From a virus (lineage: Duplodnaviria > Heunggongvirae > Uroviricota > Caudoviricetes), in IMG/VR virus record IMGVR_UViG_2671180294_000016, positions 1-5,742 of that record: 5,742 bases of DNA, one strand, 5' to 3'. This document shows, one piece after another, positions 1 through 5,742 of this stretch. Made by a program: the position numbers and the translations under genes. The notes under the pieces are model-generated. The model saw only the letters and a program-made list of their open reading frames with translations. It did not search any database and was not told the origin of the DNA. Every line of letters starts with the position of its first letter. Position 1 is the stretch's first letter.

Positions 1-1392
1 ATGGACTTACCTTCTTTACCTTCTCTTTCTTCACTCTTTTCTGCATCTTCAGGTATCAATTGGCGCGATAATCTTTACGACGCTTCATTTCGTGGCGTTC
101 CGTTTTCGGTGGAGAGCGACGAGGGTTCGTTCGGACGCCGCGTTCAGGTCCATGAATACCCAAACCGTGACAAACCGTACACGGAAGATCTCGGGCGTGC
201 CACGCGACGGCTGACGATTAATGCGTATCTCGTTGGTGATGATTACGCAGAGCAGCGCGACAGGCTGATTACAGCGATTGAAACCGCCGGGCCGGGGACG
301 CTGATCCATCCGCAGTTCGGTGAAATGCAGGGCTGTATTGACGGGCAGGTGACCGTTTCTCACTCCGGCACTGAAGGCCGTATGTGCCGGGTTTCATTTC
401 AGTTTGTTGAGAGCGGGGAACTGTCATTTCCGGTCGCCGGAGCTGCAACCGCCAGAAAACTGGAGGAGTCGTCCGTATTCCTGGATGAGTTGATTGAAGA
501 CATGTTCGGCGATTTTGATCTCGCGGGAATACCGGACTTTATTCAGAACGATGTTATTGCCCGGACGACCGATATGCTGGGAACCGTTCAGACAGCTTTC
601 AAAATGGTTAATTCGGCTGTTTCTGCCGGAGCGAGACTACTGCAGGGCGATTTATCCGTCATTCTGATGCCGCCGTCGGTTGCCAGTGATTTTGTGCATA
701 CGTTGCAGGATACCTGGCGGGCCGGAACCCGGCTGGTGGATAACACACAGGATCTGGTGCAGTCCATAACGACAATGTCCGGCATTACGCTGGACCCAGG
801 ACTGGCACCGCGTGCGGTGTGGCCCACAGATTCCGCATCGGTTATCAGGCAAAAACAGCAGACAAACCTTGTGGCTGCTGTCATCCGGACGACGGCAATC
901 AGCGAAGCCACAAGGGCGGTCACTTCACTGCCACAACCCGGAAGCCTGGTGAAAAATCAGCAGGCGGTTGTGGCTGTTGGTGGTTCCACTGAACGTCAGT
1001 CCGATATTATTCACGTTTCTCATCCGGCACTTGACAGCGTGGCAGCCAGCACAGGACAGGATGAGAGAGCGCAACCACCCACGCGGGAAAATCTCACCAT
1101 CATACGCGAATCGCTGAACGCGGCGATTGAACAGGAGCTCAGGCGTACGGCGGATGACAGGCTGTTTTTTCAGCTGACGTCATTACGTACAGAACTGAAC
1201 CGGGATATTCAGGCGCGTCTGGTTCAGACGGAGGAAACCGCAGAGCGAACGCCAGCGGAAGTTCTGCCTGCGCTTGTTCTGGCTGCGTCATGGTACGACG
1301 ATGCGTCCCGTGAAACTGATATCCTGGATCGAAATGCCATCTCTCATCCGGGCTTTGTTCCGGTCAGGGCATTAAGGGTACCCGTCAGATGA
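1..1392 (+). CDS. Phage tail protein, Mu gpN-like DNA circulation protein (contractile-tail/baseplate module)
   Basis: 463-aa ORF starting at ATG at position 1 with TGA at 1390-1392. Residues ~20-110 (WRDNLYDASFRGVPF...HEYPNRDKPYTEDLGR...AYLVGDDYAEQRD...GPGTLIHPQFG) match my recollection of the conserved N-terminal domain of Mu N-type proteins. Stop overlaps the next start in an ATGA motif. The first ~20 codons are CT-rich and low-complexity, so the true start is uncertain and the gene could be 5'-partial. Confidence 0.75.
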   Translation: MDLPSLPSLSSLFSASSGINWRDNLYDASFRGVPFSVESDEGSFGRRVQVHEYPNRDKPYTEDLGRATRRLTINAYLVGDDYAEQRDRLITAIETAGPGTLIHPQFGEMQGCIDGQVTVSHSGTEGRMCRVSFQFVESGELSFPVAGAATARKLEESSVFLDELIEDMFGDFDLAGIPDFIQNDVIARTTDMLGTVQTAFKMVNSAVSAGARLLQGDLSVILMPPSVASDFVHTLQDTWRAGTRLVDNTQDLVQSITTMSGITLDPGLAPRAVWPTDSASVIRQKQQTNLVAAVIRTTAISEATRAVTSLPQPGSLVKNQQAVVAVGGSTERQSDIIHVSHPALDSVAASTGQDERAQPPTRENLTIIRESLNAAIEQELRRTADDRLFFQLTSLRTELNRDIQARLVQTEETAERTPAEVLPALVLAASWYDDASRETDILDRNAISHPGFVPVRALRVPVR

Positions 1393-2465
1393 ATGATACC
1401 GTTTTACTTCGGGTTTCCGGTCGCGAATGGGGCGGCTGGACATCCGTCCGTATCAGTGCGGGCATTAACCGTATTGCCCGGGATTTTAATGTTGCCATTA
1501 CCACCCGCTGGCCCGGAAGCCGGGATTATCAACCCCGGATAAAAAATGGTGAGCTGGTTGAAGTGCTTATCGGGGATGAGCCTGTGCTCACCGGATATGT
1601 GGAGGCACTACCGCTTCGTTATGACGCCAGCAGCGTCAGCATGGGAATTGTCGGGCGAAGCAAAACAGCCGATCTGGTTGACTGCTCTGCTTTGCCACTC
1701 CAGCAGAGCGGAAAAAACCTGCTCAGAATAGTCAGTGAACTGGCTGCGCCATTTGGCATCACCGTTGTTGATGCTGGCGTGCCGCAGACAGCGGTGATTG
1801 ATGCCCAGCCGGAACACGGCGAAACCGTTGCCGATTGTCTTAACCGGTTACTGGGGCAGGTTCAGACGCTGGCTTATGACGATGAATGCGGGCGACTGGT
1901 TCTGGGAAAACCCGGAACAGGTAAAGCGGCGACGGCGCTGGTGCTGGGAGAGAATATTCTTTCCTGTGACACGGAAAGAAGCATCAGAGAGCGGTTTTCT
2001 GAATATCAGGTCAGTGGGCAGCGCCCGGGCAACGACGATGATTTTGGTGAGGCCACCATTGCCGCAATACGTCAGACCATTCAGGACAGTGGCGTGACCC
2101 GTTATCGCCCTTTGTTGATTCAGCAGTCAGGCACAGCAACGACAGCAACCTGTAAGGCCCGTTGTGAATTTGAAGCGCGCCAACGGGCTGCGCTTACCCG
2201 TGAGACAACATATACGGTTCAGGGCTGGCGGCAGGGCAGTGGCGCGTTATGGCGTCCGGGGTTATCTGTCATCGTTTTCGACCCGCTGAATAATTTTGAT
2301 AATGATGAACTGGTGATCGCAGAAGTTACCTATAACCAGGACGACCGGGGCACGACGACTGAATTACGGGTTGGCCCGGCAGATGCTTATCTCCCCGAGC
2401 CTGTTACCGCCAGGAAGAAAAAAATGTTGAGGAGGATTTCTGATGAACGGGTTTTCTCTTCGTAA
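1389..2465 (+). CDS. Phage tail/baseplate hub protein, Mu gpP-like (late control D family)
   Basis: 358-aa ORF; ATG at 1389 overlaps the upstream stop by 4 bp (translational coupling). Its position between the N-like and V-like genes and its size fit the Mu-type baseplate order N-P-Q(gp45)-gp46-gp47. Family assignment is by position and general similarity, not by a run alignment. Confidence 0.7.
   Translation: MNDTVLLRVSGREWGGWTSVRISAGINRIARDFNVAITTRWPGSRDYQPRIKNGELVEVLIGDEPVLTGYVEALPLRYDASSVSMGIVGRSKTADLVDCSALPLQQSGKNLLRIVSELAAPFGITVVDAGVPQTAVIDAQPEHGETVADCLNRLLGQVQTLAYDDECGRLVLGKPGTGKAATALVLGENILSCDTERSIRERFSEYQVSGQRPGNDDDFGEATIAAIRQTIQDSGVTRYRPLLIQQSGTATTATCKARCEFEARQRAALTRETTYTVQGWRQGSGALWRPGLSVIVFDPLNNFDNDELVIAEVTYNQDDRGTTTELRVGPADAYLPEPVTARKKKMLRRISDERVFSS
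2429..2435 (+). promoter_or_regulatory. Shine-Dalgarno sequence (GAGGAGG) for the gp45-like gene
   Basis: GAGGAGG lies 7 nt upstream of the ATG at 2443, inside the 3' end of the preceding ORF. This supports 2443 as the real start and an internal re-initiation site. Confidence 0.6.
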
Positions 2466-2976
2466 TCTGATTTCCCGGGCTGTCATCACGGCGGTGGATT
2501 CCGCCAGAAAGTGTCAGTCTGTAGGGTTGAAAATGATAGCCGGAGATCAGAAACAACACGTTGAGCACCTTGAACCTTATGGTTTTACATCTGCCGCACA
2601 GAACGGTGCTGAGGGCGTTGCTTTATTTCCGGCGGGCGATCGTTCTCATGGTGTGGTTGTGGTCGTGGCTGACAGACGTTACCGGCTGAAAGGACTGAAA
2701 CGTGGGGAAGTGGCGCTTTATGACGATCTGGGACAGTCCGTTGTCCTGACCCGTTCCGGTATTGTGGTGGACGGGGCCGGGAAGGCCATAATTTTTAAAA
2801 ACGCGCCTAAAGCGCGCTTTGAAATGCCAGTCGAATCCACCGCCGATATTACTGACAATTGCGACAGTGGCGGACTCAGCATGCAGCAAATGCGGCAGGC
2901 CTACAATGCCCACAAACATACCGAAAATGGTGATGGTGGCGGGATCACTGACACGCCGGATCAACCGATGGGCTGA
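2443..2976 (+). CDS. Baseplate assembly protein V-like / Mu gp45-like baseplate spike
   Basis: 177-aa ORF with a strong SD and a 23-bp overlap with the upstream gene. Motifs EPYGFTSAAQNGAEGVALFPAGDRSHGVVVVVADRRYR...GEVALYD resemble the gpV/gp45 spike family as I recall it. Confidence 0.75.
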   Translation: MNGFSLRNLISRAVITAVDSARKCQSVGLKMIAGDQKQHVEHLEPYGFTSAAQNGAEGVALFPAGDRSHGVVVVVADRRYRLKGLKRGEVALYDDLGQSVVLTRSGIVVDGAGKAIIFKNAPKARFEMPVESTADITDNCDSGGLSMQQMRQAYNAHKHTENGDGGGITDTPDQPMG

Positions 2977-2981
2977 AAATC

Positions 2982-3392
2982 ATGATGATTAATGTTAACG
3001 GGCGACCCGTGTCGACCGGGGCTTCGATCGACCTTCTGACGCGTGCTGTGATTATTTCGCTTTTTACATGGCGGCGTGCCGGGCGTGATGATGCACCACG
3101 GATATTTGGATGGTGGGGGGATACCTGGCCTGCGGTTCAGAATGATCGCACGGGGTCGCGTTTGTATCTGTTGCGACGCAGCAAGCTGACAAATAAAACC
3201 CCGCAGCTTGCCAGAGATTATGTCCGTGAGGCGCTGGCGTGGATGGTGGAGGATGGTGTTGCTTCCCGTCTTGATATTAACGCTGTCCGGACCGGGACAG
3301 ACTCGCTGGCACTTGCCATTACCATTTACCAGCGTGACGGCAATATTCACAACATTATTTTTGATGATATCTGGAGTGAACTGAATGGCTGA
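2982..3392 (+). CDS. Mu gp46-family baseplate protein
   Basis: 136-aa ORF starting at ATG 2982 (or 2985), 5 bp after the upstream stop. Its size and position between the V-like and J-like genes fit the GP46 family. The SD is weak. Confidence 0.65.
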   Translation: MMINVNGRPVSTGASIDLLTRAVIISLFTWRRAGRDDAPRIFGWWGDTWPAVQNDRTGSRLYLLRRSKLTNKTPQLARDYVREALAWMVEDGVASRLDINAVRTGTDSLALAITIYQRDGNIHNIIFDDIWSELNG

Positions 3393-3978
3393 CAGTCAGT
3401 TTTATCGCCCCGGCCTCCCGCAACTTATTTCTATGATCCGGAGCGATTTATTAACCCGCTTTGAGCAGGATACGCTGCTTCGTCGTATGGATGCGGAAGT
3501 GTATGCCCGTGTACAGGCTGCAGCCGTACACACGTTGTACGGGTATATCGATTATCTTGCCAGAAATCTGTTACCGGACGTGTGTGATGAAGACTGGCTG
3601 TACCGGCACGCCAGAATCAAACGCTGCCCGCGAAAAGAAGCGGTGGCAGCCCGGGGATTTGTGCGCTGGGATGGCGTAGAGGGGACGCCGGTATTGCCAG
3701 CGGGAACGCAGATCCAGCGTGATAATCAGGTGACCTTTACCACGACGGCGACGGTGACCGCAGCCGATGGTCTTCTCCGGGTGCCTGTTGTGGCAGACGA
3801 ACCGGGATCGGCGGGGAATACGGATGATGGTATTGCCATGCAACTGGGAACACCCGTCAGTGGTCTGCCGTCCACAGGGTACGCTGACACCATTACAGAC
3901 GGTGAAGATATTGAAAATCTGGAAATATGGCGTGCCCGCGTTATGGAACGTTATTACTACATTCCACAGGGGGGCGCA
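3385..3978 (+). pseudogene. Baseplate J-like (Mu gp47-like) gene, 3'-truncated by IS1 insertion
   Basis: ATG at 3385 overlaps the upstream stop by 8 bp, with GGAGTG 6 nt upstream. The N-terminal motif RRMDAEVYARVQAAAVHTLYGYIDYLARNLLPD is typical of baseplate J-like proteins. Native coding stops at 3978, about 198 codons, against roughly 350 expected. The 224-aa ORF in the track (to 4059) gets its last ~27 residues from read-through into IS1. Confidence 0.75.
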
Positions 3979-4324
3979 GGTAATGACTCCAACTTATTGA
4001 TAGTGTTTTATGTTCAGATAATGCCCGATGACTTTGTCATGCAGCTCCACCGATTTTGAGAACGACAGCGACTTCCGTCCCAGCCGTGCCAGGTGCTGCC
4101 TCAGATTCAGGTTATGCCGCTCAATTCGCTGCGTATATCGCTTGCTGATTACGTGCAGCTTTCCCTTCAGGCGGGATTCATACAGCGGCCAGCCATCCGT
4201 CATCCATATCACCACGTCAAAGGGTGACAGCAGGCTCATAAGACGCCCCAGCGTCGCCATAGTGCGTTCACCGAATACGTGCGCAACAACCGTCTTCCGG
4301 AGACTGTCATACGCGTAAAACAGC
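3979..4324 (-). mobile_element. IS1 insertion sequence, partial (terminal inverted repeat through ~346 bp, then gap)
   Basis: 3979-4001 GGTAATGACTCCAACTTATTGAT is the IS1 terminal inverted repeat. The following sequence matches the IS1 interior as I recall it and encodes the InsB C-terminus on the minus strand. The element continues into the N-run, so its other end is not visible. Confidence 0.95.
3994..4324 (-). CDS. insB: IS1 transposase InsB, C-terminal fragment (5' part lost in gap)
   Basis: Minus-strand translation ...[109 protein letters not shown] matches the InsB C-terminus; stop is the reverse complement of 3994-3996. The 133-aa ORF in the track (3994..4395) is a chimera spanning the N-gap. 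Confidence 0.9.
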
Positions 4325-4335
4325 NNNNNNNNNNN
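4325..4335. other. Assembly gap (11 N) joining IS1 interior to integrase interior
   Basis: A literal run of 11 n. The left flank is internal IS1 sequence and the right flank is mid-gene integrase sequence, so an unknown amount of DNA is missing. Confidence 0.98.
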
Positions 4336-4336
4336 G

Positions 4337-5008
4337 AAAAACACAATGGCAGGATCAATGCGTTCTGTGTTGTCTGATATGTTTCGCGAGGCCATTGTTG
4401 AAGGACGTATATCTCAAAATCCAGTCACGCCAACAAGAGCACCGAAAATAGTAGTTACAAGAGAACGACTGAAACTAAAGATATACAACTGCATCAGGGA
4501 GGCAGCAGATCAACTTCCGGCATGGTTCCCATTAGCTATGGATTTAGCCCTTGTAACAGGACAACGTCGCGAAGACATAACGAATATGCGGTTCAGTGAT
4601 ATTTATGATGATCGTCTCCACGTCAGGCAAATTAAGACAGGAATGATGATTGCTATCCCCCTGTCACTCAGCCTTCCTGTCGCTGGTCTACGGCTTGGTA
4701 CAGTAGTTGAACGATGCCGCCTGGTAAGCCGGGGAGATTATCTAATCAGTGCCGGGATTAGAAAAAACAGCCCTGACGGCAGCATTCACCCGGATGGCCT
4801 GACAAAAAAATTTGTCGCAGCCAGAAAATTCACAGGTATCCAGTTCAGTGAAAACCCACCAACTTTTCACGAGATCAGAAGCCTGGCTGGACGATTGTAC
4901 AAAGAAACATGTGGAGAAGAATTTGCTCAGCGTCTACTTGGCCACACATCGGAGAAGACAACAAAAATGTATCTTGATGAGAGAGAAAAAACGTACTTAC
5001 TGCTCTGA
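4337..5008 (+). CDS. int: Tyrosine recombinase, lambda Int family, 5'-truncated at the gap (C-terminal catalytic domain)
   Basis: Frame is open from the first base after the gap. The translation aligns from memory with lambda Int from about residue 160 to the C-terminus ([16 protein letters not shown] / AIP / [14 protein letters not shown] / [13 protein letters not shown]). The catalytic positions R, K, H-x-x-R, H and Y are all present. TGA stop at 5006-5008. The ATG at 4346 is probably not the real start. Confidence 0.9.
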
Positions 5009-5084
5009 TTTTAACGTAAATGGATTGTTAAATGTATTTTGGTTGTGATATAACCAAAAAGACCGGAATACAGAAATTCGAGTA

Positions 5085-5104
5085 AATTTCGGGGAATTTC
5101 GGGG
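5085..5104 (+). repeat. Perfect tandem direct repeat AATTTCGGGG x2 between int and the sRNA 3' end
   Basis: 5085-5094 and 5095-5104 are identical decamers. The position between the int stop and the presumptive att core makes them candidate arm-type recombinase binding sites, which is inference only. Confidence 0.45.
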
Positions 5105-5114
5105 GAGACATTTG

Positions 5115-5127
5115 CAACTAATTGATT
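5115..5127 (-). promoter_or_regulatory. IHF consensus-like site (WATCAANNNNTTR) in the att-proximal spacer
   Basis: The reverse complement of 5115-5127 is AATCAATTAGTTG, matching WATCAANNNNTTR. It sits in AT-rich DNA between int and the SdsR 3' end. A chance match is plausible. Confidence 0.3.
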
Positions 5128-5139
5128 TCAAATGCAATT

Positions 5140-5174
5140 AAAAAAAGACCGAATACGATTCCTGTATTCGGTCC
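5140..5174 (-). terminator. Intrinsic terminator of SdsR (hairpin GACCGAATAC...GTATTCGGTC plus U-run)
   Basis: A 10-bp perfect stem at 5148-5157 / 5165-5174 with a 7-nt loop, followed on the minus strand by 7 T (plus-strand A-run 5140-5146). Confidence 0.8.
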
Positions 5175-5242
5175 AGGGAAATGGCTCTTGGGAGAGAGCC
5201 GTGCGCTAAAAGTTGGCATTAATGCAGGCTTAGTTGCCTTGC
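5140..5242 (-). ncRNA. sdsR: Small RNA SdsR (RyeB)
   Basis: The minus strand reads GCAAGGCAACTAAGCCTGCATTAATGCCAACTTTTAGCGCACGGCTCTCTCCCAAGAGCCATTTCCCTGGACCGAATACAGGAATCGTATTCGGTC followed by a T-run. This matches the enterobacterial SdsR/RyeB sequence as I recall it, including the terminal hairpin. Exact ends are approximate. Confidence 0.85.
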
Positions 5243-5248
5243 CCTTTA

Positions 5249-5255
5249 AGAATAG
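5249..5255 (-). promoter_or_regulatory. Candidate sigma-S-type -10 element (C-TATTCT) for sdsR
   Basis: On the minus strand, CTATTCT ends 6 nt upstream of the presumed SdsR 5' end (G at 5242), with C at -13. This fits the sigma-S extended -10 pattern and the known RpoS dependence of SdsR. No clear -35 was examined. Confidence 0.45.
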
Positions 5256-5329
5256 ATGACGACGCCAGGTTTTCCAGTTTGCGTGCAAAATGGTCAATAA
5301 AAAGCGCGGTGGTCATCAGCTTAAATGTT

Positions 5330-5371
5330 AAAAACCGCCCGTTCTGGTGAAAGAACTGAGGCGGTTTTTTT
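5330..5371. terminator. Bidirectional intrinsic terminator between ryeA/sdsR and yebY
   Basis: A GC-rich stem (CCGCC..GTTC / GAAC..GGCGG) at about 5335-5364 is flanked by A5 upstream and T7 downstream, so it can terminate on both strands. It lies 30 bp past the yebY stop on the minus strand. Confidence 0.8.
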
Positions 5372-5400
5372 ATTGGAAATCAAAAGGCTATTTTAGGTAA

Positions 5401-5742
5401 TTAACAGAGTTTTTCAGCTCGTTCTATAAACGGTGCCAGACTCATTTTTTCGCCGGGATTGTTAGGATCATCAATCTGAATCACCGAAATGGGTTGGGCA
5501 TTGGTCTTCCCACTGGCAACTTCCTTTTGTGCGATATCGTTTAAAGGATACTGCACGAGGGTACTCGGATTAATAACATACAAAGCATTACCCGGTCGGC
5601 AAGTCAGCATCACCTCTTCGCGATTAAACGCCCATTTGTCTTTACCCACTTCAAAACGACTGACGGTAATCACCTGCGGTGCAGCCAGCGCCGCTGCAGA
5701 ACTGGTGAGTAACAGAAACGCCAGAATACTTTTTTTCATCAT
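5401..5742 (-). CDS. yebY: YebY, DUF2511-family secreted/periplasmic protein
   Basis: 113-aa minus-strand [27 protein letters not shown]..., with a typical Sec signal peptide and an A-x-A cleavage motif. It matches E. coli YebY as I recall it, the gene that flanks ryeA/sdsR in K-12. The start codon is at the window edge and the RBS lies outside the window. Confidence 0.85.

Follow-up and report, generated by a model that had tools for sequence, protein, structure and literature searches.

IS1 insertion in the baseplate J gene of a Shigella sonnei prophage remnant and its probably artificial link to a second remnant

The window, i.e. the whole stretch of 5,742 nucleotides analysed here (positions 1 to 5,742 of IMG/VR record IMGVR_UViG_2671180294_000016), carries a baseplate J-type gene that is split by IS1 and, behind a run of 11 N, a part of an integrase gene. 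IS1 entered J by simple insertion, which duplicated 9 bp of target and removed nothing. The adjacency of J, IS1, N-run and integrase is probably a short-read scaffolding error that arose from identical IS1 copies, the integrase belonging to a different prophage remnant. The window corresponds to positions 909-6650 of the 23,071-bp draft scaffold CXCC01000064.1 from S. sonnei (GCA_001261015.1), with 0 mismatches in 5742 bases.

Results

Gene content of the window

The left 4.3 kb of the window stems from a decayed phiP27-like prophage, of which it represents the baseplate part; the prophage has a contractile tail of the Mu type and adjoins ssrA/smpB. The row, which lies on the plus strand, starts with the gene for a DNA circularisation protein of the Mu gp43 type (1-1392; Pfam DNA_circ_N, E=3e-36), by similarity the homolog of phiP27 L48, and continues with a baseplate hub gene of the Mu gp44/P2 gpP type (1389-2465; Pfam GpP-like_1st, Gp44-like_2nd, NMB1110_3rd and GpP_4th), a Mu gp45-type baseplate assembly gene (2443-2976; Pfam Phage_Mu_Gp45, E=2.1e-26), a Mu gp46-type baseplate gene (2982-3392; Pfam GP46, E=4.5e-33) and the 5' part of a baseplate J/Mu gp47-type gene (3385-3978; codons 1-198 of 360; Pfam Baseplate_J, E=3.5e-24, profile positions 2-134 of 255), which is cut by IS1. 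The J-type gene occupies the gp47 position of the Mu row gp43-gp44-gp45-gp46-gp47-gp48, the gp48 member being supplied by closed genomes.

The Stx2e phage phiP27 (NC_003356.1, L48-L52) is 96.7% identical at the DNA level to window positions 1-3978 (phiP27 33589-37570) and has the same order of DNA circularisation, hub, gp45-type, gp46-type and J-type genes. Its J homolog L52 is intact and comprises 360 aa, whereas J of S. sonnei is split by IS1. Within the gpP/gp44 hub gene the copy number of the hexanucleotide GCTGGT (window ~1925-1945) varies, with two copies in the window and in strain 53G, three in one further locus (L004) and four in two others (L005 and L006). The hub proteins have lengths of 358, 360 and 362 aa, tracking 2, 3 and 4 copies, i.e. 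this is a small in-frame tandem-repeat polymorphism.

The J part is followed by 346 bp of IS1 (3979-4324, minus strand) and the N-run (4325-4335), which represents a scaffold join rather than a measured gap and recurs in CXCC01000064.1 at 5233-5243. To the right of it are codons 136-358 of a tyrosine integrase that belongs to another prophage remnant (4336-5008, plus strand; Pfam Phage_integrase, PF00589), the gene for the small RNA RyeA (SraC; 5136-5280, plus strand; Rfam RF00101, 179 bits, and K-12 annotation), the gene for SdsR (RyeB; 5140-5239, minus strand; Rfam RF00111, 118 bits) opposite RyeA, and the chromosomal backbone gene yebY (5401-5742, minus strand; Pfam DUF2511/YebY, E=2e-45, annotated as yebY in related loci and in K-12). 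A tRNA search of the window returned no tRNA gene.

IS1 splits the baseplate J gene

The IS1 segment runs inward from the right terminal repeat, GGTAATGACTCCAACTTATTGAT (3979-4001), and is 100% identical to S. sonnei IS1 copies (346 of 346 positions). Its counterpart in the inverted repeat of ~23 bp, the left repeat ATCAGTAAGTTGGCAGCATCACC, lies outside the window and is visible only in the closed-genome copy (HE616528.1). On the minus strand, positions 3994-4323 encode the C-terminal part of the IS1 transposase (Pfam DDE_Tnp_IS1, PF03400, E=4.6e-61, profile positions 23-131 of 131). The frame of J codons 1-198 continues for 26 IS1-derived codons to a stop inside IS1 (4057-4059), giving a fusion ORF of 224 aa that exactly matches the S. 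sonnei Ss046 protein Q3YYR0_SHISS, which is a truncated baseplate J protein misnamed 'putative head assembly protein' in its annotation.

In HE616528.1, which we take to be the same record as NC_016822 of strain 53G, the IS1 at the J site is complete, with 768 bp, ORFs for InsA and DDE_Tnp_IS1, and GAGTTTTTTAAG, which reads as A6C, the frameshift site, on the coding strand. There it is flanked on both sides by the 9-bp sequence GGGGGCGCA (10586-10594 and 11363-11371), of which the window contains the left copy (3970-3978) and not the right one. GGGGGCGCA occurs once in the uninterrupted J homolog of the enteroinvasive E. coli (EIEC) strain RMDEC465, and removing IS1 plus one repeat copy from HE616528.1 yields a frame of 360 aa that is close to the intact J of RMDEC465. 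The N-terminal Baseplate_J domain (PF04865) is in the window, and Baseplate_J_C (PF26079) is found on the ORF that follows IS1 in closed genomes. Ten places shown from the 26 longest contigs with the fusion ORF, several closed chromosomes among them, have the layout J 5' part, complete IS1 (insB, insA), Baseplate_J_C ORF, gp48, tail fibre genes, tmRNA gene (ssrA) and smpB.

An earlier note on this DNA had placed the IS1 start at 3979, at about codon 198 of a J frame of about 350 codons, with only 346 bp of IS1 in front of the N-run. Position, codon and count agree with our analysis, the length being 360 codons in relatives. The note took J to be inactivated, and an intact J can indeed not come from the IS1-split locus. 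It left a simple insertion and an IS1-mediated deletion as alternatives, and proposed to look for the second IS1 end, a target duplication and a resuming J frame, all of which are present in closed S. sonnei chromosomes. As a complete IS1 of 768 bp with a 9-bp duplication is followed directly by the 3' part of J, simple insertion holds and deletion does not. The event was an ordinary transposition of IS1 into J after codon 198, which duplicated 9 bp of target and left a 198-codon 5' piece, fused to the 26 codons from IS1, and a separate 3' ORF.

There are ~230 contigs with the fusion ORF, which are named S. sonnei, and 682 S. sonnei contigs with the J 3' ORF; an uninterrupted S. sonnei J allele is not on record according to a look-up of protein and ORF records. 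Thus, the insertion is widespread and probably ancestral in the sequenced S. sonnei population. Moreover, 'trimmed' assemblies contain 48 contigs whose end coincides exactly with the J|IS1 junction. Exact-pattern scans of species-representative genomes, among which S. sonnei evidently is not included, retrieved neither the J|IS1 junction nor the join that spans the N-run.

The insertion shares its 768 bp, terminal repeats, insA/insB and A6C site, as well as the 9-bp duplication, the coding-sequence target and the species-wide presence with the IS1 insertions that gave rise to pseudogenes in S. sonnei 53G (accession NC_016822) and Ss046 (Hawkey et al. 2020, PMC7373316), without any substantial difference. 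The split J is an ordinary finding and is already contained in reference annotations (Q3YYR0_SHISS).

Further decay of the tail region

Judging from its family, the gp47/J-type protein would be a wedge component needed for baseplate assembly, and a prophage remnant with a split J would thus be expected to be incapable of making tails. The suggestion in the earlier note that the prophage is tail-defective is reasonable, but carries little weight, because the tail region contains a second IS1 and an IS3-family element as well. The second IS1, identical to the first and inverted, lies between the tape-measure and DNA circularisation genes and has its own duplication, CGTTAAAAC, and the IS3-family element, which phiP27 lacks, is located directly upstream of the sheath gene. 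Given these two additional IS elements, the prophage is a decaying remnant regardless of the state of J.

In phiP27 the tape-measure and DNA circularisation genes are separated by 15 bp, whereas in S. sonnei the second IS1 and ~660 bp of extra DNA lie between them. The genes are likewise 15 bp apart in EIEC RMDEC465. The extra DNA, which is split by IS1 (CXCC01000064.1 481-908; HE616528.1 5244-6616), ends in a terminator-like hairpin just before base 1 of the window.

IS1-flanked composite transposons may carry inverted IS1 copies, e.g. Tn1681. The tail block resembles such composites in that it has an IS1 copy on either side, the two being identical and inverted, with the left ends outward, but differs from them in that each of the two copies has a 9-bp duplication of its own, CGTTAAAAC and GGGGGCGCA, respectively. 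The two copies therefore stem from two independent insertions. That the tail block moves as a unit is suggested by one draft scaffold only.

The integrase remnant next to yebY

From 4336 onward neither J nor IS1 is present, and the sequence instead covers the 3' two thirds of an integrase gene that belongs to another locus. Other assemblies have integrase sequence, and no IS1 end, directly to the left of 4336 (...TGGATTGAAGGAGG|GAAAAACAC). We reached the closed S. sonnei integrase locus through an S. sonnei-specific copD allele, a look-up with YebY having returned generic E. coli contexts only. All ten closed S. sonnei chromosomes fetched have an intact integrase of 358 aa, and seven of the ten match window positions 4336-5742 exactly. 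An IS1 end is located 20 bp upstream of the integrase ATG in closed S. sonnei, and an excisionase gene, several IS elements and an ipaH gene lie farther upstream; tail genes are absent from this locus in the ten chromosomes. The 223-codon integrase fragment is also named S. sonnei in database matches.

RyeA/SdsR is 128 bp downstream of the integrase stop, and the integrase reads toward the attachment site; other genomes, among them the closed S. sonnei ones, have this layout with a full 358-aa gene. The ryeA/ryeB (sdsR) locus is described as a phage attachment site (Balbontin et al. 2008, as summarised in PMC7380047). The remnant has in common with prophages at this site that the integrase gene is located beside yebY and directed at the 3' end of sdsR, but in S. 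sonnei only a remnant is left, and this is unrelated to the tail genes to the left of the N-run. In E. coli genomes the ryeA/yebY site is either empty, with pphA adjoining, or occupied by a prophage with a 358-aa integrase.

On the prophage side AAAAAGACCGGAATACA (window 5057-5073) resembles AAAAAGACCGAATACGA at the 3' end of sdsR (5145-5161), and judging from this similarity AAAAAGACCGGAATACA is probably a phage-borne copy of the attachment core. The pair escaped the repeat finder because the two copies differ by an indel. Window positions 4336-5135 are 95.9% identical to the integrase of PP818812.1, 'Actinobacillus phage vB_Apl-pPE4', a host label that is unexpected for an integrase of the E. 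coli/Shigella type.

The integrase has been hit by IS elements elsewhere. In many S. sonnei drafts (contigs of ~18 kb, e.g. UEAK01000085.1 1-112) it is split by IS630 at nt ~110, the target being CTAG; with an intact gene in the ten closed genomes, the IS630-split form seems to mark a sublineage. E. coli O121 strain 201805972 (NZ_CP119441.1) carries an independent IS1 near the 3' end of the integrase gene (9647-10414) with its own 9-bp duplication, CTTGATGAG, i.e. IS1 has struck the ryeA-site integrase more than once, in different lineages.

Anatomy of the source scaffold

CXCC01000064.1 starts with a piece of 113 bp, followed by 21 N, the last 346 bp of IS1, ~430 bp, the tail genes up to J codon 198, the first 346 bp of IS1 counted from the same end, 11 N, and the integrase gene from nt 405 onward. 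Within the 113-bp piece (1-113), the terminal 29 bp of IS1 are followed by 20 bp and by integrase nt 1-34, to which nt 191-219 are directly attached. Thus, the scaffold has a tail contig bracketed by IS1 in the middle of one integrase gene, with a piece of that gene on either side. The two IS1 pieces share the coordinate at which they stop, 346, and none of 23 full IS1 copies has a sequence variant at position 347 that might explain this stop. Neither an IS1 outer end nor a target duplication, as the ends of a composite transposon would have, is present at either integrase edge of the scaffold, and integrase nt 220-404 (185 bp) are missing between the two edges. With 34-37% GC, the unassembled stretch is richer in AT than any other part of the gene. 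N-runs also interrupt unique genes such as ptrB in a sister scaffold.

The junction of integrase nt 34 to nt 191 corresponds to an in-frame deletion of 156 bp that is absent from the closed genomes examined, and in view of it the integrase of the source strain is not simply the reference one. No contiguous gene for the predicted 306-aa product is on record, which is neutral as to the contiguity in the isolate, and a look-up of the chimeric minus-strand ORF that spans the N-run likewise yielded no entry. The left breakpoint of the deletion lies in CTAG, the preferred IS630 target, and its span covers the IS630 site of the sublineage; the deletion may represent an imprecise loss of IS630.

Discussion

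The earlier note had treated J, IS1 and the sequence behind the N-run as a single locus in which a small gap interrupts one IS1 copy. This view is not supported, as the 11 N cannot accommodate the missing 422 bp and the far side belongs to a different remnant; the 21 N in front of the other IS1 piece are likewise far fewer than the 422 bp lacking there. In the two chromosomes common to both sets of loci, J and the integrase are 1.52 Mb (CBDDMI010000001.1) and 1.59 Mb (CP044151.1) apart and lie on opposite strands, whereas they are on the same strand in the window; on the K-12 backbone the distance from smpB to yebY is 831 kb. The join is found in one assembly only, being absent from the long contigs examined for either locus and from the ten closed chromosomes, i.e. 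no independent second occurrence of the tail block at the integrase site, as would mark a composite, was encountered there. The 223-aa partial integrase is present on only one contig longer than 20 kb, and no IS1 end, left or right, is located within 12 bases of the integrase sequence from 4338 onward in the metagenome and viral contig collections scanned.

The two IS1 copies of the tail block (IS1a and IS1b) are identical, inverted and 768 bp in length, and the third copy, 20 bp upstream of the integrase, is identical to them or nearly so. Moreover, the IS1 end is followed by CGTTAA both where the tail block begins on the left and in front of the integrase, so that 774 bp are shared before the sequences fork; in a short-k assembly graph both loci are therefore attached to one and the same node. 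From this IS1|CGTTAA fork the tail block and the integrase point the same way, as they do in CXCC01000064.1. S. sonnei has a median of 286 IS insertions per chromosome, with IS1 being the commonest element, and a large Sanger read set of S. sonnei has a mean read length of 59 bp (PMC7373316). Based on these findings we consider it probable that the adjacency in the window is a scaffolding error. The identical IS1 copies and the shared CGTTAA fork would let the assembler confuse the tail block with the integrase locus, and the N-run would be the scaffolder's join of the tail contig to a second contig that starts inside the integrase of the second remnant at ryeA/sdsR-yebY.

Several observations run counter to an artefact and would suit a real, strain-specific rearrangement, in which either a 6-kb composite of IS1, tail genes and IS1 moved into the integrase gene or the IS1 in J transposed into the integrase with an inversion of ~1.5 Mb. 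Both ends of the tail contig are tied to pieces of the same integrase gene, with the unseen left ends of both IS1 copies pointing outward, just as the insertion of a real IS1-flanked block predicts, and the read-pair scaffolder steps that would yield the exact order of CXCC01000064.1 could not be reconstructed. An inversion that ends in the IS1 of J and in the integrase would convert the opposite strands of the closed genomes into the same-strand order of the window, although it accounts for one of the two joins only. Other assemblies also break here, as eight of their contigs start at window positions 4335-4337 and ten Logan contigs at 4365, and a real breakpoint near 4335-4365 in some sublineage is possible. 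The deletion junction in the 113-bp piece, the independent IS1 in the same integrase of E. coli O121 201805972 and the frequent IS activity and rearrangement in S. sonnei (PMC7373316; PMC8072062) fit a rearrangement as well. Against it stand the restriction of the join to a single assembly, the missing IS1 outer ends and target duplications together with the missing 185 bp of integrase, and the contig scans, which found no IS1 end beside the integrase sequence. Finally, the integrase locus shares IS1 and CGTTAA with the left edge of the block, which is expected of a graph error, but for a random site would be a coincidence of ~1 in 10,000 (a rough estimate from ~400 bp in 4.8 Mb). A real rearrangement thus appears unlikely, yet it is not to be neglected.

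Two further readings concern the IS1 junction itself. At face value the window shows a J 5' part, IS1 and an unrelated truncated gene, and the earlier note's alternative of an IS1-mediated adjacent deletion, which would start at J codon 199 and end midway through the integrase, would produce this picture. It is very improbable, as two loci that are 1.5 Mb apart and inverted cannot be joined in this way, and the deletion would cost a third of the chromosome; in addition, CXCC01000064.1 retains the 5' start of the integrase, and the J 3' ORF persists on the S. sonnei contigs counted above. Short-read assemblers often misplace a high-copy repeat such as IS1, and the earlier note had accordingly named as its refutation a collapsed-repeat artefact with an intact J in the real genome. 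This reading is hardly credible at all: closed chromosomes from several independent assemblies keep the J|IS1 junction to the base, together with the target duplication, hundreds of independent drafts end at or cross it, and the intact allele is not on record. A scaffolding error at the N-run, next to a genuine IS1 insertion, remains the reading that we prefer.

The biological weight of the window is small, since IS-driven pseudogenes and prophage decay are well documented in Shigella and the site is already annotated, and the finding is an ordinary one whether the join is artificial or real. If it were true, a composite move or an inversion of 1.5 Mb would be a case of IS1 reshuffling prophage remnants caught in the act. 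For the use of draft assemblies the window is instructive: in IS-rich genomes an N-run beside an IS fragment in a short-read scaffold is not equivalent to a small gap within one locus, as here it joins loci that are 1.5 Mb apart, and scans that treat windows with such N-runs as contiguous will report false 'deletion' or 'fusion' events.

The contig starts inside the integrase may be looked at in their own right. In several unrelated S. sonnei assemblies contigs that start at 4335-4337, 4365 or 4517 contain pure integrase sequence, and the starts may reflect a loss of coverage in the AT-rich 5' half of the gene or a real sublineage breakpoint. The difference between 4365 and 4335 is 30, i.e. 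k-1 for k=31; from the starts at 4335, 4336, 4365 and 4517 and the overlap lengths, however, no single consistent answer emerged for the assembler's k and the true fork position. The fetched loci, which cover a small part of each genome, contain no paralogous integrase with an identical stretch that might have caused the contig breaks.

Both remnants have ipaH effector genes at their edge, at 16472-18187 in the closed S. sonnei ryeA/yebY locus (L032) and at 17486-18997 in the phiP27-like prophage of EIEC RMDEC465 (L003).
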